The notes below the pieces were generated by a model. The model saw only the letters and a program-made list of their open reading frames with translations, had not been told where the DNA came from and made no database searches. A stretch of 32,000 nt of DNA, taken from assembly GCA_934647235.1 (NCBI GenBank), contig CAKUFG010000004.1, positions 9,580 to 41,579 on the forward strand. The letters run 5' to 3'. The DNA comes from an uncultured Clostridia bacterium. GTDB lineage: Bacteria > Bacillota > Clostridia > Christensenellales > Aristaeellaceae. Positions 13,764 through 29,027 of this stretch are shown in pieces; positions within the stretch are counted from its first letter, which is position 1, and each line of letters opens with the position of its first letter. The position numbers and the translations under genes are program-made.

Positions 13764-13780
13764 ACAGCCGAGGTGCTTTG

Positions 13781-15556: not shown

Positions 15557-15585
15557 TTGACATCCCTTTTTCTTTGCGCTAAGAT
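15557..15585 (+). promoter_or_regulatory. candidate sigma-A promoter upstream of the TIM-barrel gene
   Basis: Consensus TTGACA (15557-15562), 17-nt spacer, TAAGAT (15580-15585). Confidence 0.55.
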
Positions 15586-15607
15586 AACCTTATTGGAAAA
15601 CGGCAGG

Positions 15608-15650
15608 CTGCGCGGAGGGCTTCATCTCCCAGGCGCAGTTTCTGTTTTCT
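15608..15650 (+). terminator. terminator-like hairpin plus U-rich tract. It is either the GH13 operon terminator or a leader attenuator.
   Basis: CTGCGC (15608-15613) pairs with GCGCAG (15633-15638), with an inner GGAGG/TCTCC pairing. It is followed by TTTCTGTTTTCT (15639-15650). Confidence 0.45.
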
Positions 15651-15655
15651 GAAAA

Positions 15656-15671
15656 TTTGGAGCGGTCTAAA
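15656..15671. promoter_or_regulatory. operator O1 (palindrome copy) in front of the TIM-barrel gene
   Basis: TTTGGAGC|GGTCTAAA matches the TTTAGACC|GGTCTAAA consensus at 14 of 16 positions. It lies 19 nt upstream of the SD GGAGG (15691-15695). Confidence 0.55.
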
Positions 15672-15702
15672 TTACCCGTTTCACACTGAAGGAGGCATTT
15701 TG

Positions 15703-16524
15703 ATGCTGATTTCCACCAATTCCGGTCTTTACAGCGCCCGTCCCAACGATCTGCGCGTGCCCATGGCCGAGGCCATGGATTTCTTTGGCCGCATGGGCTT
15801 TGAGGCGGTGGACGTAAACTTTGCCGCCAGCATTTATGTGGAGCCTGAAAAGCATGAGCCCATCCTGGACGGCGATTGGCAGCAAAATCTGGATACCGTG
15901 CTGGCCGCCATCCGCCGCAATAACCTGGCGGTCTCCCACACCCACCTGCCCTTCTATAACTATGAGATGGAGGACAAGGAGCGCCTGGCCTTCTGCGATC
16001 AGATGACCTGCCGCGCCATCGACGCCTCGGCCTATATCGGCGCAAAGTACGCCGTCATCCACCCCCAGCGCGACGCCGAAAAGCACACGCTGGTTGACCG
16101 CACGGTGGCGCTGCTGACCCCCTTTAACGAGTACGCCAAGGCCCGCGGCGTAACCCTGTGCGTGGAAAACATGTATACCACCTATCCAGAGGAGCTGCGC
16201 GAGATTGTGGACCGCATGGCGTGCGGCGCATGCTGGGATGTGGGCCATGCCAATTTCGGCAAGCATCCGCAGTATGAAAGCATGACCCTGCTGGGCCAGC
16301 GCATCCGCGTGCTGCACCTGCATGATAACTACGGCACCCGCGACGACCACAGCATGCCCTACTTCGGCACCATCGATTGGGACGAAATCATGCGCGCGCT
16401 GCGCGATATCGGCTATGAGGGCACGTTCAACTATGAAGTCGCCGCCACGCACCTGCCCATGGCCCTGCGCGAGGATCACGCGCGCTATCTGGTGGACGCG
16501 GCCAAGCTGCTGCTTGGGCGCTGA
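15703..16524 (+). CDS. sugar phosphate isomerase/epimerase-type protein (xylose-isomerase-like TIM barrel, AP_endonuc_2 fold, 273 aa)
   Basis: Pattern AVIHP...CVENM...WDVGHAN...LHLHDN...GTIDWDEIMRALRDIGYEGTFNYE, which carries the metal ligands typical of this fold. GGAGG lies 7 nt before ATG 15703. Confidence 0.8.
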   Translation: MLISTNSGLYSARPNDLRVPMAEAMDFFGRMGFEAVDVNFAASIYVEPEKHEPILDGDWQQNLDTVLAAIRRNNLAVSHTHLPFYNYEMEDKERLAFCDQMTCRAIDASAYIGAKYAVIHPQRDAEKHTLVDRTVALLTPFNEYAKARGVTLCVENMYTTYPEELREIVDRMACGACWDVGHANFGKHPQYESMTLLGQRIRVLHLHDNYGTRDDHSMPYFGTIDWDEIMRALRDIGYEGTFNYEVAATHLPMALREDHARYLVDAAKLLLGR

Positions 16525-16551
16525 CGCCGCGCTGCATGTAGAAAAATTTCC

Positions 16552-16567
16552 TTTGTACCGGTTGAAA
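16552..16567. promoter_or_regulatory. operator O2 (degenerate palindrome copy) abutting the -35 of the lacI-family gene promoter
   Basis: TTTGTACC|GGTTGAAA matches the consensus at 12 of 16 positions. Its left half is the exact reverse complement of the right half of O4. Confidence 0.4.
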
Positions 16568-16573
16568 ATACAG

Positions 16574-16602
16574 TTGACAGCCGCGTCTTTCCGCGTTATA
16601 CT
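16574..16602 (+). promoter_or_regulatory. sigma-A promoter of the LacI-regulator / flavoprotein operon
   Basis: Consensus TTGACA (16574-16579), 17-nt spacer, TATACT (16597-16602). Confidence 0.7.
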
Positions 16603-16620
16603 GGCAATAGTTCAATCGTT

Positions 16621-16653
16621 ATTCCTTCCCAGTACAAGGGAATTTTATTTTCA
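16621..16653 (+). terminator. weak terminator-like hairpin plus T-tract inside the predicted leader
   Basis: ATTCCTT (16621-16627) pairs with AAGGGAAT, 5-7 bp depending on register. It is followed by TTTTATTTT (16643-16651). Confidence 0.3.
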
Positions 16654-16658
16654 GGCAA

Positions 16659-16674
16659 TTTAGATCGGTCTAAA
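16659..16674. promoter_or_regulatory. operator O3 (best palindrome copy) between the promoter and the SD of the LacI gene
   Basis: TTTAGATC|GGTCTAAA is one mismatch from a perfect 16-bp palindrome. Its centre is 107 bp from the centre of O2. Confidence 0.6.
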
Positions 16675-16697
16675 AGCTCAAGGGAGGCTGCGCGCAC

Positions 16698-17729
16698 ATG
16701 ATCACCATCCGCGAAATCGCCGCCATCGCAGGCGTTTCCCGCAGCACGGTGTCGCTGGTGCTCAACAACAGTCCCCTGGTCAAGGCCGAAACGCGCGAAA
16801 AGGTGCTGGCCGTCATTCAGGATACCGGCTATGTGCCCAACAGCAACGCCCGCAACCTCAGCTGGCGCGCCACCAAGTGCCTGGGCATCGTCATCCTTTC
16901 CGATCAGAAGCGCTCCGCCAGCTATGATTATTCGCAGTCGGTGGGTCTGTTTTCGCTCAACGTAATGCAGGGGCTGATTGACCGCCTGGCCGACAGCGAA
17001 TACAGCGTGATCATTGAGTATTTTCTGCCCAGCGCCGCTCCCGGCGCGCCGCAGCTGCCCAAGCTCCTGCGCGAGCGCAAGGTGGACGGCGTGTTCCTGC
17101 TGGGCGGCTTTCTGGACGGCCATCTGCTGCCGGACTGCCTGGCCACGGGCATCCCGCTGGTGGCGGTGGGCATCGACTCGCCCTCTACCCTGTGCGACTG
17201 CGTGATTTCCAACCTGGAGGGCGGCACCTATGACGCGCTGATGGCGCTTTATCAGCGCGGCCGCCGCCAGATCGGCCTGATGAACTGCCCGCACACCTTC
17301 CTGTCCGCGCAGCCGCGCCTGCGCGCCATGCAGCGCTTCTGCCGCGATACGGGCACGCCCTTCCAGCCGGATATGGTGCTCTACGGCCAGCACAACAACG
17401 GCGAAAGCGCCTGCCAGGCGCTGCGCGAAAGCTGGCAGGCGGGCCGCCGTTTCGATGGGCTGGTGGGTGCTAACCCCCAGGCCGCCTTGGGTGCGATGCG
17501 CTTTCTGTACGAGACGGGTCTGCGCGTGCCGCAGGACGTTTCCATCATCTCCTACGAGGATAATTCCCTGTGCGGCTACGCCACGCCGCCGCTGACGGCC
17601 GTTAACATCCGCCAGGACGCCATGGGCGCGCAGGCGGCGGAGATGATGCTTTCCCGCCTGGCCGATCCCAAGCAGCCCATGCGCTCCATCGTGGTGCCTT
17701 CCTATATGGTTGAGCGCGAAAGCGTTTAA
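16698..17729 (+). CDS. LacI-family transcriptional regulator (343 aa)
   Basis: N-terminal HTH ITIREIAAIAGVSRSTVSLVLNN...YVPNSNARNL, followed by a periplasmic-binding-protein-like sugar-sensor domain. AAGGGAGG at 16680-16687. Confidence 0.9.
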   Translation: MITIREIAAIAGVSRSTVSLVLNNSPLVKAETREKVLAVIQDTGYVPNSNARNLSWRATKCLGIVILSDQKRSASYDYSQSVGLFSLNVMQGLIDRLADSEYSVIIEYFLPSAAPGAPQLPKLLRERKVDGVFLLGGFLDGHLLPDCLATGIPLVAVGIDSPSTLCDCVISNLEGGTYDALMALYQRGRRQIGLMNCPHTFLSAQPRLRAMQRFCRDTGTPFQPDMVLYGQHNNGESACQALRESWQAGRRFDGLVGANPQAALGAMRFLYETGLRVPQDVSIISYEDNSLCGYATPPLTAVNIRQDAMGAQAAEMMLSRLADPKQPMRSIVVPSYMVERESV

Positions 17730-17763
17730 CATAAAAAACCCGATCTTTTTCTTATTTTTAATT

Positions 17764-17779
17764 TTTAGACCGGTACAAA
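17764..17779. promoter_or_regulatory. operator O4 (palindrome copy) in front of flavoprotein gene 1
   Basis: TTTAGACC|GGTACAAA matches the consensus at 14 of 16 positions. It sits in an AT-rich spacer 8 nt upstream of the SD AAAGGAG. Confidence 0.55.
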
Positions 17780-17804
17780 AATCAAAAAGGAGCCGAAAAC
17801 AGCC

Positions 17805-19118
17805 ATGATTTCCGCTACTGTTCCCTCTTTGCAGTTTGATGTGCTTGTGGTGGGCGGCGGCCCGGCGGGCGTTGGCGCGGCGGTTGCCGCAGCGCGCATG
17901 GGCGCACGCACCGTCCTTCTGGAGCGCGGCGGCCTGCTGGGCGGCATGCTCACCGCCGGACAGGTACAGCCCATCCTGGGCAATGTCGCCCCAGGCAGCT
18001 TTTATGATGAAATCGTCGCCCTGCTGGCCGAGGGCCATGAGGATGTGCCGCTGACCGCCACGCGCAACGGGCGCGAAATCCACGTGGATGTGGAAGAGGC
18101 CAAGGAGCGCCTGCTGCGCCTGACGCACGAAAGCGGCGTGGAGATCTTCCTGCACACCCCGGTGGTGGAGGTGCTCAAGGACGGCTCCCGCGTGACGGGC
18201 GTGCTGGCAGGCACGGCGCTGGGCCTGCAGGAGTTGCACGCCAGCGTGGTCATCGACGCGACGGGCGACGGCTTTGCCGCGATGCGCGCGGGCGCGCAGT
18301 ATCACATCGGCCGCGAGCAGGATGGCCGCTGCCAGCCTGTAACCATCGAGTTTCTGGTCGATCATCTGGATGAAAGCCGGGCGCTGTCCTGCTTTGGCGG
18401 CAGCGATCCCGTCACCCTGCCCGACGGCAAAAAATACAGCCGGCTGTGCCGCGAGTGCTGTGAGCGCGGCGAGCTGCCCCAGAACGTATCCATCGTGCGC
18501 CTGCACAAAACCTTCTATCCCGGCGAGCGCAATGTGAACGCCACCCAGGCAAACGGCCTGGATATCCTGACCCCCAGGGACGAGGTAACAGCCGAGCTGA
18601 CCCTGCGCGCGCAGATTGACAGGATCGTCGCTTTCCTGCGCAAGTATGTGCCCGGCTATGAAAACTGCCGCGTCAAGTCCTCCGCCGCCACGCTGGGCGT
18701 GCGCGAGACGCGCCGTATCGAGGGCCTGCGCCGCATCGAGGATATCGATGTGGAAACAGGCACGCGCTGTCCCGACGTGGTGGTGCACAAGGCATGGTTC
18801 CTGATCGATATCCACAATCCCGCGGGCGGCGGCCAGGCCGAGGGGCACTCCCAGCCCGCCATTCCCTATGATATCCCCTACGGCGCGCTGGTTCCGCGCG
18901 GCGTGGACGGCATGCTGACCGCCGGGCGCTGCATCAGCGGCACGCACCGCGCGCACGCATCCTACCGCGTGATGGCCATCTGCCTGGCTACGGGTCAGGC
19001 GGCGGGCACGGCAGCGGCGCTGTGCGCCAGGCGCGGGGAGCTGCCGCGCGAGCTGGATTATCATCTGGTGCAGGATGCGCTGCAAAAGGCGGGCTGCACG
19101 CTGTTTGACCAGGAATAA
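17805..19118 (+). CDS. FAD-dependent oxidoreductase, FAD_oxidored (PF12831)-like, paralogue 1 (437 aa)
   Basis: N-terminal dinucleotide fold DVLVVGGGPAGVGAAVAAARMGARTVLLERGGLLGG, IDATGDG, LGVRETRRIEG, and the C-terminal AGRCISGTH...YRVM...TGQAAGTAAA. No signal peptide. Confidence 0.8.
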   Translation: MISATVPSLQFDVLVVGGGPAGVGAAVAAARMGARTVLLERGGLLGGMLTAGQVQPILGNVAPGSFYDEIVALLAEGHEDVPLTATRNGREIHVDVEEAKERLLRLTHESGVEIFLHTPVVEVLKDGSRVTGVLAGTALGLQELHASVVIDATGDGFAAMRAGAQYHIGREQDGRCQPVTIEFLVDHLDESRALSCFGGSDPVTLPDGKKYSRLCRECCERGELPQNVSIVRLHKTFYPGERNVNATQANGLDILTPRDEVTAELTLRAQIDRIVAFLRKYVPGYENCRVKSSAATLGVRETRRIEGLRRIEDIDVETGTRCPDVVVHKAWFLIDIHNPAGGGQAEGHSQPAIPYDIPYGALVPRGVDGMLTAGRCISGTHRAHASYRVMAICLATGQAAGTAAALCARRGELPRELDYHLVQDALQKAGCTLFDQE

Positions 19119-19137
19119 ACAAGGGGAGGAACCGAGC

Positions 19138-20520
19138 ATGTACAATTTTTCCTGTGCGCTGGATGAAAGCTACGCCGCGCAGGTGACGGTAGTGGGCGGC
19201 GGCCCGGCAGGCGTATGCGCCGCCATTGCGGCCGCGCGCAGCGGCGCCAAAACCCTGCTGATTGAAAGCGGCAACTGCCTGGGCGGCATGGCGACGCTGG
19301 GGCAGGTCAATCCTTTTATGACCTGCTATGACAAGGATGGCGACAATATGATCATCCGCGGCCTGTTCAAGGAGATCGTCGATCGCCTGGTCGTCCGCGG
19401 CGCGGCCATCGACCCTGGCGAGGTGCCCGCAGGCTCGGCCTTTACCTCCTATATCATCGTCGGCCACAAGCATGTCACCCCCTTTGACGCAGAAACGCTC
19501 AAGGTGGTGCTGGATGAAATGTGCTGCGAGGCCGGGGTGCAGGTGCTGTTCCACAGCACGTTCGTATCCCCTGTGATGGAGGAAAACCGCCTGACCGGCC
19601 TGGTCATCATGACCAAGGGCGGGCTGAAGCTGGTAAAGAGCGATATCGTAATCGACTGCACGGGCGACGCGGACGTTGCCTATCGCAGCGGCGTGCCCTG
19701 CGAGATGGGCGATGAGGCCAGCGGCCGCATCCAGCCGGTGACGATGTTCTTCCGCATCGGCAATGTGGATTCCGCCAGGGTGGAGGCCGATATCGATGCG
19801 AACCGCAATAACTTTTACCGCAAGGACGGCGTAAACTACCGCTCCTTCCACTGGCGGGTGGCCCAGGCCCGCGCCAATGGCGACTGGGATTTGCAGCGCG
19901 TATCCATCGGCATGTTCCGCGGCGTGCGCGAGGATGAGTGGAACATCAACACCTCCCGCATCATGGGCGTGGACGCCACCGATCCCGATCAGCTGTCCCG
20001 CGCCGAAATGGAAGGCCGCGAGCAGGTGCAGCAGATTTTCCGCTTTCTCAAAAAATACGTGCCCGGCTGCGAAAACGCCGTGCTGATGAGCACGCCCGCG
20101 CACATCGGCGTGCGCGAAACGCGGCACATCAAGGGCGAATATATCCTGACCACCGACGATGTGCTGCACGGCGTGCTCTTTGACGACAGCATCCTGCTGG
20201 CCGCCAACTCCATCGATGTGCACGGGCGCTTCGGCCCGATGAGCAACGAATACGTCACGGTGGAAAACGGCGAGTACTACGGCGTGCCCTACCGCTGCCT
20301 TGTGCCCCTGAAGGTGGAAAACCTGCTGGTGGCCGGGCGCAGCGTATCGGCCACTTCCGAGGCCGCCGGGGCCATCCGCGTGATGCCCCCCTGCATGGCG
20401 CTGGGGCAGGCGGCGGGCACAGCCGCCGCGCAGGCTGTCGCCGCGCATATCTCCCCCCGGCAGATCGACGTACAGGCCCTGCGCCATACCCTGCGCGAGC
20501 AGGGCGCATTCCTGGGCTGA
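19138..20520 (+). CDS. FAD-dependent oxidoreductase, FAD_oxidored (PF12831)-like, paralogue 2 (460 aa)
   Basis: VTVVGGGPAGVCAAIAAARSGAKTLLIESGNCLGG, IDCTGDADV, IGVRETRHIKG, AGRSVSATS...IRVM...LGQAAGTAAA. Start ATG 19138 follows AAGGGGAGGA. Confidence 0.8.
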   Translation: MYNFSCALDESYAAQVTVVGGGPAGVCAAIAAARSGAKTLLIESGNCLGGMATLGQVNPFMTCYDKDGDNMIIRGLFKEIVDRLVVRGAAIDPGEVPAGSAFTSYIIVGHKHVTPFDAETLKVVLDEMCCEAGVQVLFHSTFVSPVMEENRLTGLVIMTKGGLKLVKSDIVIDCTGDADVAYRSGVPCEMGDEASGRIQPVTMFFRIGNVDSARVEADIDANRNNFYRKDGVNYRSFHWRVAQARANGDWDLQRVSIGMFRGVREDEWNINTSRIMGVDATDPDQLSRAEMEGREQVQQIFRFLKKYVPGCENAVLMSTPAHIGVRETRHIKGEYILTTDDVLHGVLFDDSILLAANSIDVHGRFGPMSNEYVTVENGEYYGVPYRCLVPLKVENLLVAGRSVSATSEAAGAIRVMPPCMALGQAAGTAAAQAVAAHISPRQIDVQALRHTLREQGAFLG

Positions 20521-20532
20521 CTGATGCAGAAT

Positions 20533-20553
20533 GGTAAACGCCACGGCGTTTCC
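20533..20553 (+). other. small intercistronic hairpin (no T-tract)
   Basis: AAACGC (20536-20541) pairs with GCGTTT (20546-20551), with flanking GG/CC pairs. It lies between flavoprotein 2 and the binding-protein gene. Confidence 0.3.
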
Positions 20554-20580
20554 AAAATATAAAAGAAAGAGGTACCCCAC

Positions 20581-21936
20581 ATGAAAAAGGCACTCGCTTT
20601 CCTGACCGCGCTGGTGCTGCTGCTGTGCGCCCTCCCCATGGCCATGGCCGATGAGCAGCCCGACATCACCTCCTGGATCCTGTCCAAGGATCCCGCCGCC
20701 GTCACCGGCACCGTGCGCTTCTGGATTCCCTTCAAGGGCTCCCAGGGCATGGACGACATGATCGCCGAGTTCAACCAGACCTACCCCAACGTCAAGATCG
20801 AGCTGACCACCTACAACAACAACTCTGACGGCAACCTGGCCGTCAACGCCGCCCTGATGAGCGGTGAAATCGACGTGCTGGCCTCCTTCGGCCTGGCCAA
20901 CGCCTATCAGCGCTGGGAAAACGGCCTGTACATGGAGCTGACCGACTACATCGAAAAGTACAACATCAACCTGGTAGACAACTGGGGCACCGATGTGTAC
21001 AAGTACGAGGATACCTACTACACCTTCCCCTGCGGCGGCCTGAGCTACTATGTTTCCATTAACATGAACGATTGGAACGAAGCGGGCCTGGGCGAGCTGC
21101 CCACCGAGTGGACGTGGGATGAGTATCTGGCTGCCAGCGCCGCCATGACCAAGAAGGACGAAGCGGGCAACACCGTGCTGTACGGCGGCTCCGACTACCA
21201 CAGCGTCAACTACTTCACCTATGTATGGTATCAGGTAAACGGCCACGACCAGTACTACGGCGCGGACGGCCTGTCCAACTTCACCGATCCCCTGATCGTC
21301 AACGCCCTCAAGCGCGAGATCAAGGCCGAAGTGGAGGACAAGATCTGGTATCCCCTCGAGGTGTACCGCAACGATAACATCCAGACCCAGGACGTGTTCA
21401 TGGGCCACACCGTAGCCTCCGCCATCAGCCCCAACATGGTGCGCTTCATCCGCGATACCGAAAAGTATCCCACCCAGTGGATCACCGGTTTCGCCCCCTG
21501 GCCGGTAGAGGAAAAGGGCCAGACCAACTATATGGCGGGCGTATCCAACTTCTCCCATGCCGGCATCGCCGCCAACTGCGCCGATGAAGAGGCTGCCTGG
21601 TACTGGCTGGCCTGGTATTCCACCTACGGCTCCCGCTACCTGATCTGCGCCGGCCATCAGTCCTCCTGGAAGGGCACCGATACCAACGCGCTGGTCGATC
21701 TGGTATTCGGCAGCGAAGAAAACGCCCAGAAGCTGGTGGACGTGGAATCCTTCAAGCGCGTGGTTGTCAACTATGACAATCCTCCCTACACCGACACCAT
21801 CCTGACCGCCTACTCCGATGTGAACAAGGCGATCAACGAGTACACCCGCTATGCGCACCAGGGCCTGATGACCGCCGAGGAAGCCATGGCCCAGGCCAAG
21901 CAGGTTGCCGACGAAGCCATCAAGAACGCTGACTGA
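20581..21936 (+). CDS. extracellular solute-binding protein of a CUT1-type carbohydrate ABC importer (451 aa)
   Basis: Signal peptide MKKALAFLTALVLLLCALPMAMA. Family-1 binding-protein size and composition (aromatic/acidic rich). Followed by two MalFG-type permeases. Confidence 0.85.
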   Translation: MKKALAFLTALVLLLCALPMAMADEQPDITSWILSKDPAAVTGTVRFWIPFKGSQGMDDMIAEFNQTYPNVKIELTTYNNNSDGNLAVNAALMSGEIDVLASFGLANAYQRWENGLYMELTDYIEKYNINLVDNWGTDVYKYEDTYYTFPCGGLSYYVSINMNDWNEAGLGELPTEWTWDEYLAASAAMTKKDEAGNTVLYGGSDYHSVNYFTYVWYQVNGHDQYYGADGLSNFTDPLIVNALKREIKAEVEDKIWYPLEVYRNDNIQTQDVFMGHTVASAISPNMVRFIRDTEKYPTQWITGFAPWPVEEKGQTNYMAGVSNFSHAGIAANCADEEAAWYWLAWYSTYGSRYLICAGHQSSWKGTDTNALVDLVFGSEENAQKLVDVESFKRVVVNYDNPPYTDTILTAYSDVNKAINEYTRYAHQGLMTAEEAMAQAKQVADEAIKNAD

Positions 21937-21937
21937 T

Positions 21938-22000
21938 TTCAATCCCTGGGCGGATTGAAGCAACACAGCGCCCTCCCGCCTCGCCAAGGGGCGGGAGGGC
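21938..22000 (+). other. two consecutive intercistronic stem-loops after the binding-protein gene
   Basis: Hairpin 1: TTCAATCC (21938-21945) pairs with GGATTGAA (21952-21959). Hairpin 2: GCCCTCCCGCC (21970-21980) pairs with GGCGGGAGGGC (21990-22000), a perfect 11-bp GC stem. No T-tract follows. Confidence 0.5.
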
Positions 22001-22021
22001 CATAGAAATGAGGAAAACACC

Positions 22022-22951
22022 ATGTCCAACCCTGATCTGGCAGCCCGCAAGCGGCTGACAAGGCGCACCAGCGCCCTGCAGCGGCAGGAAACCCTCATCG
22101 GATATGCCTTCATCCTGCCCGCGCTGATTGTATTTCTGGTCTTCGTGGCCTTCCCCTTCTTCGCCTCCATCGGCCTGTCCTTTACCAAGTGGAATTTCCT
22201 GGGCGGCTGGAAAAAGCTCAAGTGGGTCGGCCTGCAGAACTTTGCCAACCTGGCCAAGGATCGCCGCTTCGGCCAGGCCTTTGCCAACACGTTCATCTAT
22301 TCCATCGCCACCGTGCCCACCTCCATCCTGCTGGCGCTGGTGCTGGCCTATATTCTCAACAACAAGGTCTATTGCAGAAAGCTGCTGCGCATGGCCTTCT
22401 TCATCCCCTACATCTCCAGCGCTGTGGCGCTGGCCGCCGTGTTCAAGTTCATGTTCCGCGACGACGGCGTGATCAACTCCATCCTGCTGGCGCTGGGCGT
22501 AAAGAACCCGCCGCAATGGTTTGTAAGCCTGCAATTGAACAAAATTCCCATCATCGTGATGGTCATCTGGACGGCCGTGGGCTATGAGCTGGTCATCTAC
22601 ATGTCCGCGCTGCAAAGCGTGCCCACCAGCCTGTACGAGGCCGCCGATATCGACCAGGCCAACGGCGTGCAGAAGTTCTTCTACATCACGCTGCCTATGG
22701 TGTCCCCCACCACCTTCTATCTGGTCATCGTGCGTATGATCGCCGTGTTCAAAATCTTCTCCTCCGTCAACATCATGACCATGGGCTCCACCTCCTACGC
22801 CAACACCTCCATGGTGGTGGAAATCTACAGCAACGCCTTTGGCAGCTACAAGTTTGGCTATGCCGCGGCGCAGTCCATGGTGCTGTTCGTGCTTATTCTC
22901 GTCATTACCCTGCTCAACTTCTGGGGACAGAAGAAGTGGGTTCATTATTAA
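22022..22951 (+). CDS. sugar ABC transporter permease (MalF-like, 309 aa)
   Basis: EAA loop YEAADIDQANGVQKFFYITLP; six-helix hydrophobic profile. Confidence 0.9.
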   Translation: MSNPDLAARKRLTRRTSALQRQETLIGYAFILPALIVFLVFVAFPFFASIGLSFTKWNFLGGWKKLKWVGLQNFANLAKDRRFGQAFANTFIYSIATVPTSILLALVLAYILNNKVYCRKLLRMAFFIPYISSAVALAAVFKFMFRDDGVINSILLALGVKNPPQWFVSLQLNKIPIIVMVIWTAVGYELVIYMSALQSVPTSLYEAADIDQANGVQKFFYITLPMVSPTTFYLVIVRMIAVFKIFSSVNIMTMGSTSYANTSMVVEIYSNAFGSYKFGYAAAQSMVLFVLILVITLLNFWGQKKWVHY

Positions 22952-22968
22952 AGAAAGGAGAACGCCCC

Positions 22969-23802
22969 ATGAAAAAGAATGAAAGAGCGGCCGCCATCGT
23001 GCGCACTATCGTCGTATCGCTCATCGCCGTGTTGTTTGTCGTTCCGCTGGTATGGATGGTGCTCTCCTCGCTCAAAACCGCGCCGGAGGTATTCGCCCGG
23101 CCCTTCCACTGGCTGCCCGCCAAGGCCCAGTGGCAAAACTACGCCACCGTGTGGATGAACGAAGAGGCCTCCATGCTGCGCGCCTTTGCCAACACGCTGT
23201 ATATCGCGCTGTTCAGCATCGTCGGGCAGATGCTCATCTCCTCTCTGGCGGCCTATTCCTTTGCCAAGATCAATTTCAAGGGCAAGCAGATCGTATTCAT
23301 GCTGTTCCTGTCCTCCATGATGGTGCCCAGCCAGCTGACCATCATCCCCCGCTTTATGCTGTTCAAGACCATCGGCCTGTACAACAACCTGTGGGCCATC
23401 ATCCTGCCCGCCTTCTTTGGCGCCACGTCCATCTTCATGCTGCGGCAGTTCTATATGGGATTGCCCAACGATCTGATCGAAGCCGCCAAGATCGACGGCG
23501 CGGGACATCTGCGCATTTTCCTGCGCATCATGCTGCCGCTGACCAAGGCCGCGCTGATGTCGCTGATCATCCTCACCTTCATCAGCAGCTGGAACGAATA
23601 TATGGCTCCGTTGATTTTCCTGGTCAAGAAGGAATTGTACACCGTATCGCAGAATATCCAGTGGTACATGCTCGATGAATTCAAGGAGCATAACCTCACC
23701 ATGGCCGCCGCCACCAGCGCCATCGTGCCGGTCGTGATCCTGTTTATCGTTGGGCAAAAATACTTTGTTGAAGGTATCGCCACCTCCGGCGTAAAGGGCT
23801 AA
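22969..23802 (+). CDS. sugar ABC transporter permease (MalG-like, 277 aa)
   Basis: EAA loop IEAAKIDGAGHLRIFLRIMLP. Start ATG 22969 follows AAAGGAGAA. Confidence 0.9.
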   Translation: MKKNERAAAIVRTIVVSLIAVLFVVPLVWMVLSSLKTAPEVFARPFHWLPAKAQWQNYATVWMNEEASMLRAFANTLYIALFSIVGQMLISSLAAYSFAKINFKGKQIVFMLFLSSMMVPSQLTIIPRFMLFKTIGLYNNLWAIILPAFFGATSIFMLRQFYMGLPNDLIEAAKIDGAGHLRIFLRIMLPLTKAALMSLIILTFISSWNEYMAPLIFLVKKELYTVSQNIQWYMLDEFKEHNLTMAAATSAIVPVVILFIVGQKYFVEGIATSGVKG

Positions 23803-23811
23803 GCACTTTTT

Positions 23812-25479
23812 ATGAAACAAACCTATACCATCGGCGTTGATTTTGGCACCCAGTCCGCCCGCGCCGTGCTGTGCCGCGTATCCGACGGCGCGGTGCTGGC
23901 GCAATCCGAGCACCCCTATGCCCACGGCGTAATGTCCGATCGTCTGCCCTGCGGCACGCCCCTGCCCCCCGATTATGCCCTGCAGCACCCACAGGATTTT
24001 CTGGACGCCCTGCACGCTGCCGTGCACGGCATACTGGAGCAGTCCGATATCGACCGCGCGGATATCATCGGCATGGGCATGGATTTTACCTGCAGCACGC
24101 CCATGCCCATGGGCAAGGGCGGCGTGCCGTTGTGCTTTGATCCTAAATTCGAACGCAATCCGCACGCCTATATCAAGCTATGGAAGCACCATGCCGCGCA
24201 GTGGGAAGCCGCGCGGCTGACCGAGCTGATGCGCGAGCACGACCCGGACCTGCTCGCCCACGTGGGCGGCAGGCTGTCCGCCGAGGCGTTTTTCTCCAAG
24301 GTATGGCAGGTGCTGCGCGAAGCGCCCGATGTGTTTGACGCGGCCGACCGCTTTCTGGAGGTGGGCGACTGGCTGACCCAGCAGCTCACCGGCAATGAAA
24401 ACCTGGCCTGCTCGCTGGCCGCGCATAAGGCGCAGTACCGCGAGGGCATTGGCTATCCGCCGATGCTGCAATACGCCGATCCGCGCCTGGCCGGCATGAT
24501 CGGCGCCAAGGTGCGCGGCAAGCTCATCGATATCGGCGCGGTCAGCGGATATCTGACGCAGCAGCGGGCCGCCTGGCTGGGCCTGCCTGCGGGCATCATC
24601 GTCACCGCCCCGCATCCCGACGCCATGGCTTCCCTGCCCGCGCTGGGCATCGCAGGTCCCGGCCCCGCCGCGCTGGCAGCCGGCACGTCCTCCGCCATGA
24701 TCCTGTGCCACTCTAAATTCCTGCCTGTGGAGGGCACCACCAGCATCATGCCCAACAACACCCTGCCCGGCCTGTACGGCTATGCCTCCGGCCAGGCGGC
24801 CTTCGGCGACCTGCTGGGCTGGTTTGTCAACCGCTGCGCGCCCGAGGAGGTATTCCGCGCCGCGCAGGCTGCGCACATCTCCGCGCATGAGGAGCTTTCC
24901 CGCCGCGCCGCGCTGCTGCGTCCCGGCGAAAGCGGGCTGATCTGCCTGGACTGGTGGAACGGCAACCGTTCCTGCCTGGCTGATATGCGCCTGAGCGGCA
25001 TGCTGCTGGGCATGACGCTGCAAACCCGGCCCGAGGAGATTTACCGCGCGCTGATGGAGGGACTGGGCTTTGGCCTGCGCTGCATCATCGATTCGCACGA
25101 GCGCGCGGGCGTACCCGTCCCCGCCCTGCATGTCAGCGGCGGCATCTCCTATAAGAATCCCGTGTTCATGCAGCTGCTGAGCAATATTCTTCAGCGCCCG
25201 CTCTACATTTCCAAGCCCCTGCCTACCCCGGCCGTGGGCATGGCCATCCTGTCCGCCTGCGCGGCGGGCGCGCAGAAGGGCGGCTACGATCAATTGGCCG
25301 AGGCTGCCGCGCGCATGAGCTGCCTGAGCGATATCAGCTATCAGCCCGACGCCAGCCAGGCCGCTGCCTACGACGCGCTGTATCAGGAATATATGACCCT
25401 GCACGATTATTTTGGCCGGGGCGCCAACGATGTGATGAAACGGCTGCGCGAGCTCTCCGCCGCCGCGAAGGAACAATAA
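23812..25479 (+). CDS. araB: FGGY-family carbohydrate kinase, ribulokinase (AraB)-like (555 aa)
   Basis: The N-terminus YTIGVDFGTQSARAVL...LPPDYALQHPQDFLDAL...IIGMGMDFTCSTP follows the AraB pattern I know from Bacillus (YTIGVDFGTLSGRAVL...LPRDWALQHPADY...IGIDFTACT). The length is typical of ribulokinases. The physiological substrate is uncertain because araA and araD are absent. Confidence 0.75.
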   Translation: MKQTYTIGVDFGTQSARAVLCRVSDGAVLAQSEHPYAHGVMSDRLPCGTPLPPDYALQHPQDFLDALHAAVHGILEQSDIDRADIIGMGMDFTCSTPMPMGKGGVPLCFDPKFERNPHAYIKLWKHHAAQWEAARLTELMREHDPDLLAHVGGRLSAEAFFSKVWQVLREAPDVFDAADRFLEVGDWLTQQLTGNENLACSLAAHKAQYREGIGYPPMLQYADPRLAGMIGAKVRGKLIDIGAVSGYLTQQRAAWLGLPAGIIVTAPHPDAMASLPALGIAGPGPAALAAGTSSAMILCHSKFLPVEGTTSIMPNNTLPGLYGYASGQAAFGDLLGWFVNRCAPEEVFRAAQAAHISAHEELSRRAALLRPGESGLICLDWWNGNRSCLADMRLSGMLLGMTLQTRPEEIYRALMEGLGFGLRCIIDSHERAGVPVPALHVSGGISYKNPVFMQLLSNILQRPLYISKPLPTPAVGMAILSACAAGAQKGGYDQLAEAAARMSCLSDISYQPDASQAAAYDALYQEYMTLHDYFGRGANDVMKRLRELSAAAKEQ

Positions 25480-25480
25480 T

Positions 25481-27235
25481 ATGCTTAATTTGAATAACGC
25501 CATCCGCCATCAGGCCGATATCTGCGTGATCGGCGGCGGCATGTCCGGCATGATCGCCGCCATTTCCGCCGCGCGCCACGGGGCCAGGGTGGTGCTGATG
25601 CACGACCGTCCTGTGCTTGGCGGCAACGCCAGCAGCGAGATCCGCATGTGGATCCGCGGCGCGGCTGGCAAGGAAAACCGTGAGGCGGGGATCCTGCAGG
25701 AGCTCGAGCTGGAAAACATCTACCGCAACCCCACCATGAACTATTCCATCTGGGACAGCGTGCTGCTGCAGGCCGTGACGGCGGAAAAGAACATCACCCT
25801 GCTGCTCAACTGCTCCTGTCTGGATTGCCAGACCGCAGGCAGCCGCATCACGTCCGTCACCGGCTGGCAGCTGAATACCTACGCCTTCCACACTGTGGAA
25901 GCGCAGCTCTTTCTGGATTGCTCGGGCGACAGCATCCTGGCCCCGCTGTGCGGCGCTGCGTACCGCGTGGGCCGCGAGGGGCAAAGCGATCTGGGCGAAT
26001 CCGAGGCTCCCGCGCAGGCTGACCGCAAAACAATGGGCAATTCCTGCCTGATCGAGGCCCGGCAGACCGATCATCCCTGCCCGTTCATTCCGCCCAAGTG
26101 GGCGAACGTTTACCCCGATGACGCCAGCATGATGGACAAGAACCATGATTTCATCGGCACGGGCGTGAACTTCTGGTGGATTGAGCTGGGCGGCGAGCAG
26201 GATACCATTGCCGACACGCAAACGCTGAACATGGAGCTGCTCAAAATCGCCTTTGGCGTGTGGGATCATATCAAAAACCGCGGCGATCACGGCGCGGATA
26301 ACTGGGAGCTGGAATGGGTGGGCTTCCTGCCCGGCAAGCGCGAAAGCCGCCGCTACGAGGGCGACTATATGCTCACCCAGCAGGATCTGTCCACCGGCCG
26401 TCCCTTCCCCGATGTGGTGGCCTACGGCGGCTGGACGATGGACAATCACCTGCCTGCGGGCTTTTACGCGCCGGGCTACTCCTCGCACCATCTGCCCGTC
26501 AACGCGCCCTATCCTATCCCCTATCGCTGCCTGTACTCGCGCAATATCGATAACCTGATGTTCGCCGGGCGCAACATCAGCGCCTCGCACCTGGCCATGA
26601 GCTCCACGCGCGTGATGGCCACCTGCTCGCTGATGGGCCAGGCTGCCGGCACCGCCGCCGCGCTGGCCGTGGAAAAGGCGTGCGATCCGCGCGGCATTTA
26701 TCAGGATCATATGGCCGAGCTGCAGCGCCGCCTGATGGACGACGGCTGCTACCTGCCCGGCCTTACGCGCAGCCCCGTGCCGGTGCAGATCGATCTGCCG
26801 CCCGAGCAGCTGGCCATTCTGCAAAACGGCTGGGAGCGCCCGCATGCGGGCGTTGAAAACCGCATTCTGCTGCCCGCAGGCACGCGGCTGACCATCATCC
26901 TGCCCGCCCCCGCGCACCGTCAGGCGCTGCGGCTGGCGCTGGACCCTGATTTTTCGCGGGAGAGCATTTCCCCGCGTAAAAAGTATCAGGACTTTGCCAT
27001 GCGCACGCATGTGTTTGCGGACGATCCGCCGCTGCAGCTGCCCGCCCCGCTGCTGCGCGAGGCTGCCCTGATCTGCGAAATGCCGGACGGCCCCACGGTC
27101 ATAAAGCTCCGCCCCCACCAGGCGCTGCTGCATATTCCCCTGCCGGAGGGCGCATCCCGCCTTACCCTGTGCCTGGAATCCGCCTGGGGCGGCGGCGATA
27201 TCGGCCTGTATGGCTGCGAAATCACAGACGCTTAA
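25481..27235 (+). CDS. FAD-dependent oxidoreductase, long FAD_oxidored (PF12831)-like form with a C-terminal extension (584 aa)
   Basis: ADICVIGGGMSGMIAAISAARHGARVVLMHDRPVLGGNASSE, LDCSGDS, GKRESRRYEG, AGRNISASH...TRVM...MGQAAGTAAA, then about 150 further residues. The start is 1 nt after the kinase stop. Confidence 0.8.
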   Translation: MLNLNNAIRHQADICVIGGGMSGMIAAISAARHGARVVLMHDRPVLGGNASSEIRMWIRGAAGKENREAGILQELELENIYRNPTMNYSIWDSVLLQAVTAEKNITLLLNCSCLDCQTAGSRITSVTGWQLNTYAFHTVEAQLFLDCSGDSILAPLCGAAYRVGREGQSDLGESEAPAQADRKTMGNSCLIEARQTDHPCPFIPPKWANVYPDDASMMDKNHDFIGTGVNFWWIELGGEQDTIADTQTLNMELLKIAFGVWDHIKNRGDHGADNWELEWVGFLPGKRESRRYEGDYMLTQQDLSTGRPFPDVVAYGGWTMDNHLPAGFYAPGYSSHHLPVNAPYPIPYRCLYSRNIDNLMFAGRNISASHLAMSSTRVMATCSLMGQAAGTAAALAVEKACDPRGIYQDHMAELQRRLMDDGCYLPGLTRSPVPVQIDLPPEQLAILQNGWERPHAGVENRILLPAGTRLTIILPAPAHRQALRLALDPDFSRESISPRKKYQDFAMRTHVFADDPPLQLPAPLLREAALICEMPDGPTVIKLRPHQALLHIPLPEGASRLTLCLESAWGGGDIGLYGCEITDA

Positions 27236-27244
27236 ACTGCAAAC

Positions 27245-27285
27245 CAAAACGCCTGCAATCGGCATTCAGATTGCAGGCGTTTTTT
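27245..27285. terminator. bidirectional intrinsic terminator
   Basis: Perfect 12-bp stem: ACGCCTGCAATC (27249-27260) pairs with GATTGCAGGCGT (27269-27280). AAAA lies upstream and TTTTT downstream. It sits between two convergent genes. Confidence 0.85.
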
Positions 27286-28157
27286 CACGCTTTCTTTTTG
27301 CTGATCGCTTCAATCGCCATCGAGGCCAGCAGCCCTGCGGCGCAGATCACGCCGCCCCAGAAAAGGCCGCCGGAGATATTCTGCCCCAGCGCCAGATCAA
27401 TCGCAAGGCCGGTGAATATCTGCCCCAGGAAGGACAGCAGCGTCAGCCGGAAGGCAGCGATGCGCGGCACCGTGATATTGAGCAGCAGCACCACCGTTAC
27501 GCCCAGCATGCCGCCGCACAGCATCCACGGCGCAGGCGCGGCAGAGGGCTTCAGCGCCGTGCCGCCCGCCAGCAGCCACAGCAGCAGGCAGCAGGGAAGG
27601 CCTGTTAAATGGTTGAAAAACGAACCCGTCAGCGCGCTGGCCTTTTGCGACAGCCGTGCATTCACCGTGCGCGAAAACACATTGGTCACGCCGGCGGCAA
27701 TGGATACGAGCACCGCCAGCGCCGCATCCGCAATGGACGCATCCAGCATCACCGCCACGCCGATCAGAGAAATGCCCATGCCGATCCAGGTGGATTTGGC
27801 CACGCCGCGCCGGGGCATGCCCAGCAAGCCCAGCCCGTCCATCAGCGCGGCGGTCATGGTTTGCCCCAGCAGGCCCAGCGCCGTCAGGCTGGTTACGCTG
27901 ATGCGCCCAAAGGCGAAATTGTTAAAGAACGTGGTCAGCACGCCGATTACGCCGCCCAGATAGGCCCAGGCAGGGGCATACCGACGGGCGAATATCCTTT
28001 CCCGCCGGACCAGGCACAGTATCAGCGCAAAGGCCGTGCCCACCGCGTGGATGACCACCGCAGCGGTGTACTCGCCCACGCAGGCCGTCAGCCCGCCGTT
28101 GATGGACACCATGATGGAAATCACCGCGCCCGTCAGCAGCGCCAGCAGCATACTCAT
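27285..28157 (-). CDS. DMT-superfamily membrane protein with two fused DUF606 (YdcZ-like) repeats (about 290 aa)
   Basis: LLALLTGAVISIMVSINGGL...VIHAVGT in the first half, and AVLVSIAAGVTNVFSRTVNARL in the second half. About 10 predicted TM helices. The start is ambiguous among ATGs at 28166, 28163, 28157 and 28151, all after GGGAG. Confidence 0.7.
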   Translation of the reverse strand: MSMLLALLTGAVISIMVSINGGLTACVGEYTAAVVIHAVGTAFALILCLVRRERIFARRYAPAWAYLGGVIGVLTTFFNNFAFGRISVTSLTALGLLGQTMTAALMDGLGLLGMPRRGVAKSTWIGMGISLIGVAVMLDASIADAALAVLVSIAAGVTNVFSRTVNARLSQKASALTGSFFNHLTGLPCCLLLWLLAGGTALKPSAAPAPWMLCGGMLGVTVVLLLNITVPRIAAFRLTLLSFLGQIFTGLAIDLALGQNISGGLFWGGVICAAGLLASMAIEAISKKKA

Positions 28158-28179
28158 CGTCATCATCTCCCGTACATGC

Positions 28180-28253
28180 CTATTGTACGCCAGGCAGAGC
28201 CTGCTGCATATGACATTTGTCATGGTATTTGCGGACAAATTGGTGTACAATAG
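28180..28253. promoter_or_regulatory. inverted-repeat architecture in the divergent DUF606 / Crp-Fnr intergenic region
   Basis: CTATTGTAC (28180-28188) and GTACAATAG (28245-28253) are perfect 9-bp inverted repeats. Each supplies a TACAAT -10-like box facing its gene. Between them are the 14-bp palindrome ATGACATTTGTCAT (28210-28223) and ATTTG-CGGA-CAAAT (28227-28240). Confidence 0.35.
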
Positions 28254-28266
28254 CAGCAAAGGGGGC

Positions 28267-28941
28267 ATGCTGATGCAGTCAATCGCCTTAACCGCCGCCG
28301 CGCGCGCGGCCCTGAGCCGCTATGGTCTGGATGCGCGCACCCTGACCGGCTGCCGGGTGCAGCAGTATCAGCCGGGCGAAACCGTGCTGCGCCAGGGCGA
28401 CGACGCGGCGTATTTTCATATTGTGCTGGATGGCGCGGCCAAGGTGTGCGTCAACGCGCGCAACGGGCGGCATCTCATCCTGTGCTATTATGCCTCCAGC
28501 GGCGTGCTGGGCGATGTGGAATTGATGCTGCCCAGCCCAAAAACCACCAACACCGTCATCGCCGTCAGCGCCTTTTCCTGCGCGGCGGTGCCGCTGCGTG
28601 AAAACCGGGATGCGCTGCTGGGCAATCTGGCCTTTATCAGCCGCATTGGGCAGGAGCTGGCGCAAAAGCTGCTGCGCAGCAGCGATGCGCACATGATCTC
28701 CGCCCTCTATACCAGCCGTGAGCGCCTGTGCGCCTACATCCTCACCACCCAGCGGGGCGGGGTTTTCCGCGAATACCTGACCGACGCGGCGCAGTCCGTG
28801 GGCGTCAGCTACCGGCAGGCGCAGCGCATTATGCAGTCGCTCTGCGCCCTTGGCGTGCTGCAGAAGGTTGATTCCGGCTTTCAGATTCTGGATATGCCGC
28901 AGCTGCAGGCGCTGTCCTGTCAGGGCGAAGCCACTGCCTGA
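28267..28941 (+). CDS. Crp/Fnr-family transcriptional regulator (224 aa)
   Basis: cNMP-binding-type beta-roll (GETVLRQGDDAAYFHIVLDGAAKV) plus a C-terminal HTH (LTDAAQSVGVSYRQAQRIMQSL). Start ATG 28267 follows AAAGGGGG. The upstream part of the track ORF overlaps the divergent gene and is rejected. Confidence 0.8.
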   Translation: MLMQSIALTAAARAALSRYGLDARTLTGCRVQQYQPGETVLRQGDDAAYFHIVLDGAAKVCVNARNGRHLILCYYASSGVLGDVELMLPSPKTTNTVIAVSAFSCAAVPLRENRDALLGNLAFISRIGQELAQKLLRSSDAHMISALYTSRERLCAYILTTQRGGVFREYLTDAAQSVGVSYRQAQRIMQSLCALGVLQKVDSGFQILDMPQLQALSCQGEATA

Positions 28942-28961
28942 TTGTCGCCGCTTTCTCCATC

Positions 28962-28990
28962 TTGCGCTTTTCAAGCGGCTATGATATCAT
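28962..28990 (+). promoter_or_regulatory. weak candidate promoter for the metallophosphoesterase gene
   Basis: TTGCGC (28962-28967), 17-nt spacer, TATCAT (28985-28990). The -35 is a poor match. Confidence 0.25.
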
Positions 28991-29027
28991 ATGCCTGTCC
29001 AATGATAGGAAAGGAGCTGATTCGCCT

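Follow-up and report, generated by a model that had tools for sequence, protein, structure and literature searches.

The stretch of DNA analysed here, 32 kb from an uncultured Clostridia bacterium and referred to as the window, contains a block of nine co-oriented genes. They encode, in this order, a triosephosphate isomerase (TIM) barrel protein, a LacI-family repressor, two flavoproteins (F1 and F2), the binding protein and two permeases of an ATP-binding cassette (ABC) importer, an AraB-family kinase and a third flavoprotein (F3). A single LacI repressor with a conserved 16-bp palindromic predicted operator would gate the block in three units, and the same genes were shown to travel together, with the same predicted operator, in many genera. 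These two observations, the conserved predicted operator and the co-conservation across genera, support the view that the nine genes form a single unit in both regulation and evolution. The locus probably encodes an undescribed pathway. We tentatively favour the interpretation that gut and rumen Clostridia share here a conserved catabolic regulon under LacI control, in which flavoproteins would replace hydrolases or isomerases. Rather than a polysaccharide, its substrate would most likely be a compound of carbohydrate type that is small and soluble, for example a sugar carrying an acyl group or another modification, a small glycoside or a polyol conjugate.

Predicted operator and conservation of the locus

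The palindrome, TTTAGACCGGTCTAAA, was first read by comparing the three larger intergenic regions of the block. With up to three mismatches allowed it occurs at exactly three sites in the 32 kb, none of them with more than two mismatches, against 0.01 expected; these sites are listed in Table 1, and a degenerate fourth copy is located at 16551-16566. The repressor is composed of an HTH_LacI domain (PF00356) and an effector domain (PF13377), and the palindrome, which has a central CG and stands before the regulated genes, has the features of a LacI-family operator.

Relatives were collected by a profile scan with an alignment of F2, using one genome per GTDB species. The scan found 271, of which the best 80 were used; their F2 proteins show 56-96% identity over the full length. 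The carriers belong to Oscillospiraceae, Lachnospiraceae, Christensenellales and Acutalibacteraceae, and also to Kiritimatiellae, Verrucomicrobiota and Bacteroidales/Alistipes; Clostridium sp. MCC353, Clostridium sp. chh4-2 and Lawsonibacter faecis NSJ-52 are cultured carriers among the 80. The two Clostridium strains have the orthologous cassette, and in the region covered L. faecis NSJ-52 has F2 and the transporter only. In these loci the palindrome was found 59 times, in 27 of the 80, compared with 3.55 hits in shuffled sequences. The sites precede orthologues of LacI, F1, F2, the binding protein and F3. Orthologous sites before lacI are present in many related loci, and a counterpart of operator site 1 precedes the TIM barrel orthologue in two (L006 and L007). 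Since the palindrome recurs before orthologous genes in 27 of 80 genomes, it defines a conserved regulon.

Orthologues were counted within 10 kb on either side of F2 in the 80 loci. LacI was present in 33 loci (38-99% identity), the binding protein in 26, the permeases in 24-25, F1 (at least 55% identity) in 23, the kinase in 22 and F3 in 21. Thus the co-conservation that the preliminary description of this DNA had proposed to look for was found, with LacI, transporter, F1, F3 and kinase each occurring near F2 in roughly 21-33 of the 80 loci, across genera. The TIM barrel protein (at least 40% identity) was encoded in eight loci, and any protein of its family (PF01261) in 15. Other recurrent neighbours were SGNH/GDSL esterases (15 loci), an approximately 300-residue protein without annotation, here called c6 (14 loci), a zinc-dependent alcohol dehydrogenase (Zn-ADH, IolM-like), short-chain dehydrogenases/reductases (SDR), members of the mannitol dehydrogenase family, glycerol-1-phosphate-dehydrogenase-like Fe-ADH_2 proteins (seven loci), PfkB, DUF624 and an aldo-keto reductase with Fe-S domains. 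The 70 further neighbours of F2 have no family in common, and no glycoside hydrolase (GH) family recurs among them; GH39, GH92 and GH172 were each encountered singly, along with one glucuronyl esterase. An association with GH172 was considered and judged insufficient, as it is confined to two Verrucomicrobiota loci. The lack of a recurring GH family indicates that the missing hydrolase is a trait of the system and not of this genome alone.

The order and the families of the nine co-oriented genes had been read correctly from the sequence, as Pfam confirmed. Scans with Pfam and NCBIfam likewise detected no GH, polysaccharide lyase (PL), araA, araD or nicotinamide adenine dinucleotide (NAD)-type dehydrogenase domain in the block, in agreement with the preliminary description, nor an ABC ATPase domain. 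In domain scans araA and araD were absent from the whole 32-kb window, and no riboswitch or other RNA family was found anywhere in it with Rfam. Two details of the early reading had to be revised. Gaps of 1-85 nt had been given for the whole block, which holds for seven of them (75, 19, 60, 85, 17, 9 and 1 nt), whereas the TIM barrel gene and lacI are separated by 173 nt and lacI has a promoter-like site of its own. The block had also been taken to run from one promoter to one terminator; a promoter-like site and a perfect hairpin do lie at its ends, but the three predicted operator sites divide it into three units (the TIM barrel gene; lacI; F1-F2-binding protein-permeases-kinase-F3) rather than a single promoter-to-terminator operon.

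The TIM barrel gene was counted in the regulon because a predicted operator precedes it, whereas none is found at the gene directly upstream of the block (approximately 13778-15550, plus strand). The latter encodes a cytoplasmic GH13 protein with an alpha-amylase catalytic domain and an N-terminal extension, probably neopullulanase- or cyclomaltodextrinase-like. Its membership in the unit was rejected, as the synteny is confined to the five closest genomes and the operator is lacking.

The start codons given in Table 1 were corrected, each start being confirmed by an exact look-up of the protein sequence in a public collection. The window has a G+C content of about 62%. Near-identical copies of the nine proteins come from metagenome-assembled genomes of uncultured gut 'Clostridiales bacterium', and some of these proteins are seen on several hundred to 1,000 or more contigs.

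Table 1. Genes and predicted regulatory elements of the LacI-controlled block (positions in the window)
Feature	Position	Strand	Basis or remark
Promoter-like site TTGACA-17-TAAGAT	15557-15585	+	upstream of TIM barrel gene; consensus match only, 10/12
Predicted operator site 1, TTTGGAGCGGTCTAAA	15656-15671	.	32 nt before TIM barrel start codon
TIM barrel protein (PF01261), Endo IV/MJ1311-like branch	15703-16524	+	Pfam, 106 bits
Promoter-like site TTGACA-17-TATACT	16574-16602	+	upstream of lacI; consensus match, 11/12
Predicted operator site 2, TTTAGATCGGTCTAAA	16659-16674	.	24 nt before lacI start codon
LacI-family repressor	16698-17729	+	PF00356 and PF13377
Predicted operator site 3, TTTAGACCGGTACAAA	17764-17779	.	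26 nt before F1 start codon
Flavoprotein F1, 437 aa, cytoplasmic	17805-19118	+	PF12831, 359 bits
Flavoprotein F2, 460 aa	19138-20520	+	PF12831, 417 bits
Extracellular solute-binding protein with N-terminal signal peptide	20581-21936	+	SBP_bac_1
ABC permease 1, CUT1/UgpA-MalF type	22022-22951	+	BPD_transp_1
ABC permease 2, UgpE-MalG type	22969-23802	+	BPD_transp_1
AraB-family FGGY kinase, altered sugar pocket	23812-25479	+	NCBIfam; alignment with 3QDK
Flavoprotein F3, 584 aa, C-terminal beta-sandwich extension (~430-584)	25481-27235	+	PF12831, 307 bits (residues 13-418)
Bidirectional intrinsic terminator	27246-27283	.	perfect 15-nt inverted repeat AAAACGCCTGCAATC/GATTGCAGGCGTTTT, 8-nt loop, flanking A and T runs; shared with convergent DMT/YdcZ gene
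DMT/YdcZ gene	27285-28268	-	converges on the terminator

The flavoproteins F1, F2 and F3

The three flavoproteins had been assigned to one family on the basis of shared motifs, and this was confirmed: all three match PF12831 end to end (model positions 1-416, cut-off 27 bits), and all contain GxGxxG...LGG, D[AC][ST]GD, RE[TS]R..[EK]G and AGR..S....RVM....GQAAGTAAA. Each has the N-terminal dinucleotide-binding motif GxGxxG and a C-terminal flavin-binding helix motif. The identity between F1 and F2 is 35%, and F3 shares 26-29% with either. F3, which carries a C-terminal extension of about 165 residues, represents a tight subfamily; its best-matching homologues listed are 60-99% identical and mostly full length, and nearly all of them keep the extension. 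In each of the three proteins GxGxxG begins within approximately 20 residues of the N-terminus, which leaves no room for a signal peptide and agrees with the absence of signal peptides reported before.

An AlphaFold2 model of F2 (mean predicted local distance difference test score, pLDDT, 84.8; predicted template modelling score 0.89) displays a two-domain, GR2-type flavoprotein fold. Foldseek comparison of this model with PDB gave best template modelling (TM) scores of about 0.45-0.54, with geranylgeranyl reductase, PnpA, PHBH-type enzymes, halogenases and proteins of the flavocytochrome c3/fumarate reductase type. The model of F3 was of lower confidence (pLDDT 73.6), its C-terminal beta-sandwich being confident (strands at pLDDT 85-94), and it retrieved the same generic flavoprotein matches with TM scores not exceeding 0.54. 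Sequence and profile searches of PDB with F1, F2, F3 and the F2 alignment yielded only N-terminal Rossmann matches over the first 50 or so residues, and no solved close relative. In the literature searched no function is assigned to the PF12831 family, and nothing was found on the combination of flavoprotein, TIM barrel and ribulokinase; matches to the term 'FAD_oxidored' were discarded, as they concern a different Pfam clan (MTHFR, PRODH) or the alpha subunit of sarcosine oxidase. The statement that these flavoproteins have no settled role therefore stands, with the Pfam family confirmed and, for F2 and F3, Foldseek matches that are generic only.

Several observations point to F2 as the system's core enzyme. 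Some of the related loci have F2 by itself, others have it together with c6, F1 or F3, and others again with all three. Its orthologues in diderm bacteria have clear twin-arginine translocation (Tat) signals (e.g. MNRREFMKG, NRRDFLKG), which imply that the protein is folded and loaded with its cofactor when exported, and that it acts in the periplasm. This placement, predicted to be periplasmic in diderms and cytoplasmic, after ABC import, in Clostridia, is the pattern expected of an enzyme whose substrate is the incoming compound, as is the case for glycosidases. F2 has numerous relatives: in a full HMMER search of 1.84 billion representatives it matched 2,148 clusters (at 50% identity) with E≤1e-30, a number that rose to 15,531 when the threshold was relaxed to E≤1e-3. 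Distant homologues on plasmids (28-42% identical) occur in varied contexts. On a Microvirga plasmid a homologue with 39% identity forms part of a minimal LacI-permease-permease-binding protein-flavoprotein cassette, and in Paenibacillus an F2 homologue is located in a GH130/SGNH/acetylesterase locus. A homologue on an Arthrobacter plasmid was considered as a xanthan-type cassette and rejected, since no ABC genes are nearby.

The placement of F2 bears on an alternative in which F2-type enzymes would cleave a glycosidic or ether bond by transient oxidation, elimination and re-reduction, and would need no external acceptor, thus being flavin analogues of the NAD-dependent GH4, GH109 and GH188 enzymes. 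No electron acceptor or partner (electron-transferring flavoprotein, ferredoxin or cytochrome) is encoded in the block, and Tat-type F2 occurs in fermentative rumen Kiritimatiellae and Verrucomicrobiota, where it is predicted to act in a periplasm devoid of NAD(P). A predicted periplasmic F2 in fermentative anaerobes mildly favours redox-neutral chemistry over net dehydrogenation. Furthermore, in minimal cassettes of LacI, ABC importer and enzyme F2 stands where a GH would be, related loci show no recurring GH family, and F2 has many invariant polar residues (RE[ST]R, D-x-H, several His, Asn, Tyr and Trp). The NAD-type dehydrogenases of related loci are, however, just as compatible with a net redox pathway, and to our knowledge there is no precedent for a flavin-dependent glycosidase, so that we consider this mechanism unlikely. 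It is also rather doubtful that F2-type PF12831 proteins represent a mechanistically new kind of carbohydrate-cleaving enzyme, namely glycosidases, lyases or ether-cleaving enzymes that depend on flavin, are redox-neutral and would replace GHs in the cytoplasm (Clostridia) or, via Tat, in the periplasm (Kiritimatiellae, Verrucomicrobiota, Bacteroidales), with F1 and F3 as sister specificities and a re-tooled AraB-like kinase capturing an unusual ketose.

The neighbourhoods of F2 contain further proteins. c6 is encoded directly beside F2 orthologues (e.g. L062:16459-17406; also L040, L053, L061, L064 and L065) and has no match in Pfam, NCBIfam or PDB. In some genomes the whole cassette is LacI-F2-c6, and c6 is probably a functional partner of F2. 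In three Verrucomicrobiota loci (L003, 9180-10004; L017; L027) the gene of a 274-residue protein without family match (c39) ends 4 nt inside the start of the gene for the Tat-type F2 orthologue, an overlap that points to translational coupling; just upstream of it there is a GH172 gene in L003 and L027. Neither c6 nor the 274-residue protein is related to anything in the window, and kinship between the two was ruled out by hhalign. In a Kiritimatiellae locus (L005:11498-14452) a 984-residue protein with duplicated PF12831 segments, and a weak HEAT-repeat match below the Pfam cut-off, is encoded immediately downstream of a Tat-type F2. Four Bacteroidales/Alistipes loci (L060, L077, L082, L085) have the F2 orthologue inside SusC/SusD loci, together with one to four paralogous proteins of approximately 410-570 residues that show faint metallo-beta-lactamase similarity only; L082 and L085 also contain a sulfatase-family protein, a GH27-like protein and BACON proteins. 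A glycyl-radical enzyme (PFL-like and Gly_radical domains) is present in three F2 loci (L040, 11867-13987; L035; L084), and in L040 its gene comes directly after F2-c6.

Kinase, TIM barrel protein and the proposed pathway

The kinase was compared with ribulokinases. It scored above the cut-off on NCBIfam model NF003154 (527 bits, cut-off 428) and below it on TIGR01234 (513 bits, cut-off 583), and is 44% identical to Bacillus halodurans ribulokinase (3QDK, E=3e-155), in which L-ribulose is bound by Ala96, Lys208, Asp274 and Glu329 (PMC4880283). Counterparts of Lys208, Asp274 and Trp126 are kept in the window kinase, whereas Glu329 is replaced by Ala. Among the kinases of related loci this position is Ala or Gly in 20 of 21 and Glu in one. 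E. coli AraB is just 33% identical to 3QDK yet has Glu at position 329, as does the B. halodurans enzyme, both being validated AraB proteins. Judged by these alignments, the kinases of the locus and its relatives make up a separate subfamily, derived from AraB, whose sugar pocket has changed, and the name ribulokinase is probably an over-annotation. Neither araA nor araD is among the recurrent neighbours in related loci. Of the earlier suggestion that the kinase acts on a ketopentose-like product, the AraB-family assignment holds, but the Glu residue that ligates L-ribulose is lost.

The family of the kinase fits an alternative route in which a free pentitol, hexitol or unusual monosaccharide would be converted by the flavoproteins to a ketose or aldos-2-ulose and then phosphorylated, no bond being cleaved. 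The absence of a hydrolase and the Zn-ADH, SDR, mannitol dehydrogenase-family, Fe-ADH_2 and PfkB genes of related loci are consistent with it. Three anciently diverged flavoproteins and SGNH esterases, however, exceed the needs of simple polyol utilization, a binding protein with two permeases of the CUT1 type is more typical of oligosaccharide or glycoside uptake, and a polyol dehydrogenase exported by Tat into the periplasm would have no obvious electron acceptor in fermenters. Such a route appears rather unlikely.

The TIM barrel protein had been proposed to convert or cleave a keto intermediate, as an isomerase or as a lyase of the DgpBC/CarBC type; the searches do not support this. A profile of eight orthologues matched MJ1311 (3WQO) first in PDB (4e-18), followed by ketose 3-epimerases, IolI and endonucleases IV (Endo IV); the C-/O-glycoside beta-eliminases (DgpBC/CarBC/OGE) were absent from its matches to all PDB sequences at E≤1. 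Scores on models of ketose 3-epimerases and isomerases (D-psicose 3-epimerase, FrlC, IolO, UlaE/SgbU) were 15-39 bits, far below the cut-offs of 200-305. The best NCBIfam match was phosphodiesterase CbiR, at 73 bits, which is below the cut-off of 105. In the eight orthologues H79/H81, H120, E155, D179, H182, H205/H207/D208, D214/H216 and E245 are invariant. Endo IV (Nfo) has nine metal ligands, which we take to be H69, H109, E145, D179, H182, H216, D229, H231 and E261; in a weak hhalign match (E=0.0025) H81, H120, E155, D179, H182, H205, D214, H216 and E245 fall on the positions of this ligand motif. MJ1311 is itself an Endo IV homologue of M. jannaschii (PMC2770678). A multi-metal hydrolytic or phosphoesterase role thus seems at least as likely for the TIM barrel protein as that of a keto-intermediate lyase or isomerase. 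A role in DNA repair is unlikely because the gene sits in a sugar regulon under the same predicted operator. With orthologues in eight of 80 loci it is the least conserved member of the regulon, accessory and lineage-restricted.

Two further alternatives draw on the similarities of this protein. Fructoselysine 3-epimerase was its second NCBIfam match (39 bits, far below cut-off), which could point to a pathway in which the C-N bond of an Amadori, Heyns or opine-like conjugate of a sugar with an amine is oxidized, as by amadoriases or opine oxidases, and the freed keto-sugar is then phosphorylated. B. subtilis takes up fructosamines by an ATPase-less CUT1 system; a distant PF12831 homologue beside a BCCT transporter and an enolase-superfamily enzyme suggests an amino-acid-derivative context, and the flavoproteins have weak N-terminal similarity to sarcosine oxidase subunits. 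All these similarities are weak or confined to the Rossmann motif, and no deglycase (SIS), amino-acid catabolic gene or aminotransferase was found in the window or recurrently in related loci, which makes C-N oxidation very improbable. The other alternative is that the locus scavenges polymers of polyol phosphates or sugars joined by phosphodiesters, for instance fragments of teichoic acid. Here the TIM barrel protein would cleave a phosphodiester, the flavoproteins and glycerol-1-phosphate-dehydrogenase-like enzymes would oxidize the polyol or its phosphate, and the kinase would recycle ribitol- or ribulose-type products. Besides the Endo IV ligand set and the CbiR match, both weak, this would account for the Fe-ADH_2 genes of seven related loci, for the several metallo-beta-lactamase-fold proteins and the alkaline-phosphatase-superfamily 'sulfatase' of Bacteroidales polysaccharide utilization loci with F2, and for the SGNH esterases, which could remove D-alanyl or acetyl esters. 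It is built on weak family-level hints, though; the TIM barrel protein is absent from most F2 loci and no GlpQ-type phosphodiesterase or phosphatase recurs in them, so that we regard scavenging of this kind as very unlikely.

Uptake in the preferred, flavoprotein-based pathway would be by the CUT1-type importer. It consists of an SBP_bac_1 binding protein and two BPD_transp_1 permeases with no ATPase in the block, and would borrow a shared ATPase. The use of shared MsmX/MsiK-type ATPases by such importers is established for Firmicutes and Actinobacteria. No relative of the binding protein with an informative ligand was found in PDB. Its signal peptide (20581-20660) is MKKALAFLTALVLLLCALPMAMA, with an AxA cleavage site before DEQ; the residues preceding the Cys (L-L-L-C) deviate from the classical lipobox, an unusual feature in the binding protein of a monoderm.

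After uptake, the cytoplasmic PF12831 flavoproteins would take over the job that glycoside hydrolases or isomerases have in ordinary sugar loci. Flavin-dependent, non-hydrolytic processing is plausible, and is the most economical reading because hydrolases are absent here and not recurrent in relatives while the flavoproteins are co-conserved. F2 would be the key enzyme; since in diderms, alone or with F3-like partners, it is predicted to be exported by Tat folded and cofactor-loaded, it would act on the incoming compound itself. The likely chemistry would be a dehydrogenation by flavin at a C-OH group, or at a C-H adjacent to O or N, activating the molecule for cleavage or rearrangement, after which F1 and F3 might work on other positions or linkages, or carry out re-reduction. 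The product, a ketose or polyol, would be phosphorylated by the AraB-family kinase; as the kinase pocket has lost the L-ribulose-binding Glu, its substrate is probably related, but not identical, to L-ribulose. The TIM barrel protein would be an accessory multi-metal enzyme of the Endo IV/MJ1311 kind, for which hydrolysis or phosphoester cleavage may be likelier than keto-sugar isomerization. From the esterases that recur in related loci we infer that the substrate is often acylated, and from the kinases and assorted polyol dehydrogenases of these loci that the products are ketoses or polyols.

Several observations weigh against this pathway. The putative oxidation is read from the family membership of the flavoproteins alone, and the redox partner it would call for is not encoded in the block. 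The Endo IV ligand assignment of the TIM barrel protein comes from the weak profile match mentioned above. Many F2 loci have no transporter or kinase within 10 kb, in part because of short contigs. Finally, PF12831 homologues with 28-35% identity occur in non-sugar contexts, such as TTT/IclR organic-acid loci of Variovorax and a GntR/enolase-superfamily/BCCT locus of Vibrio. The varied contexts of the distant homologues indicate that the chemistry of the superfamily is broad, and that a tie to sugar-type loci holds for the F1, F2 and F3 subfamilies only.

The PF12831 family is very large, and its members are scattered through carbohydrate loci in bacteria of the gut, the rumen, soil and marine habitats. 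The locus described here offers a compact test system: a repressor and operator for an inducer screen, a binding protein for ligand fishing, three soluble cytoplasmic flavoproteins and a kinase with a diagnostic pocket change. The identity of the substrate would annotate thousands of genes and could reveal non-hydrolytic carbohydrate breakdown in abundant uncultured gut Clostridia.

Elsewhere in the window there is a second ATPase-less CUT1 sugar importer (binding protein 6017-7357, permeases 7425-8342 and 8339-9184). It adjoins a LysR regulator (4949-5881), a fumarase-type lyase (3415-4833, minus strand) and a GH29 alpha-L-fucosidase (1864-3345, minus strand), and this region (1864-9184) contains no copy of the LacI operator. 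Two neighbouring minus-strand open reading frames in 28288-30689, of 228 and 572 codons, overlap by 4 nt and have no Pfam match.

Comparison with known systems

The Gfo/Idh/MocA and TIM barrel pathway of gut Bacteroidota is an oxidation/elimination system to which the locus can be compared. Further systems for deglycosylation by oxidation and beta-elimination are DgpA with DgpBC, CarA with CarBC, and G3Ox with OGE (PMC10628242, PMC10646112). The locus shares with them the putative non-hydrolytic logic, the combination of an oxidoreductase with a xylose-isomerase-like TIM barrel protein in a sugar-uptake locus without GH, and an oxidase, here putative, that in some diderms is predicted to be periplasmic and Tat-exported. 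In contrast, its oxidoreductases belong to PF12831, and the block contains no GMC or Gfo/Idh/MocA domain. Unlike DgpBC, CarBC and OGE, its TIM barrel protein is Endo IV/MJ1311-like and missing from most related loci, and three flavoprotein paralogues and a kinase are present. By these comparisons the locus resembles the oxidation/elimination systems in outline but falls outside them with both enzymes.

Within AP_endonuc_2, the TIM barrel protein is most like the Endo IV/MJ1311/CbiR branch, with MJ1311 as best match and counterparts of all nine ligands in the weak alignment; unlike CbiR itself, it scores below the CbiR cut-off and is encoded in a sugar regulon under a shared operator.

L-Arabinose operons (E. 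coli araBAD, B. subtilis araABDLMNPQ-abfA) also have an AraB-family kinase and, in AraNPQ, an ATPase-less CUT1 importer, and AraM-like Fe-ADH_2 genes occur in some of the related loci. The window, however, has no araA, araD or arabinofuranosidase gene, the kinase has lost Glu329, and regulation is by a LacI-type protein with an operator of its own. The AraB-type kinase is thus borrowed, and the locus is not an arabinose operon.

The arrangement of LacI, two permeases, binding protein and flavoprotein has a parallel in actinobacterial xanthan loci, their flavoprotein being likened by annotation name. The locus of Paenarthrobacter ilicis comprises PL8, a sugar kinase, manA, LacI, two permeases, a binding protein and a FAD-dependent oxidoreductase (PMC12772297), and that of Microbacterium has XutR3, XutM1-3 and XutN (bioRxiv 10.64898/2026.04.20.719765); the cassette adjoins a PL8 lyase that releases pyruvylated mannose (PMC12772297; bioRxiv 10.64898/2026.04.20.719765). 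The Microvirga plasmid cassette has the same gene order. PL8, GH3, GH38 and GH9 genes are present in the xanthan loci and none of them here. The pairing of such a cassette, matched by annotation, with a lyase that frees pyruvylated mannose, and the SGNH esterases and acetylesterases that recur beside F2 homologues, would suit the removal of a decoration (pyruvyl ketal, O-methyl or O-acyl) by flavoenzyme and esterase from a modified monosaccharide that lyases or hydrolases of other bacteria had set free, with ordinary kinases following. Yet the window has no esterase, PL8 or manA, a ketal carbon bears no hydrogen to abstract, and the xanthan-locus flavoproteins are linked by annotation name only; decoration removal is therefore quite improbable.

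As a LacI-gated catabolic locus with an ABC importer, the system is of an already known type, whose catalytic core lacks a characterized counterpart. New here are the 16-bp predicted operator and its conservation in 27 of 80 genomes, F2 as the predicted core, the change in the kinase pocket and the proposed reassignment of the TIM barrel protein.

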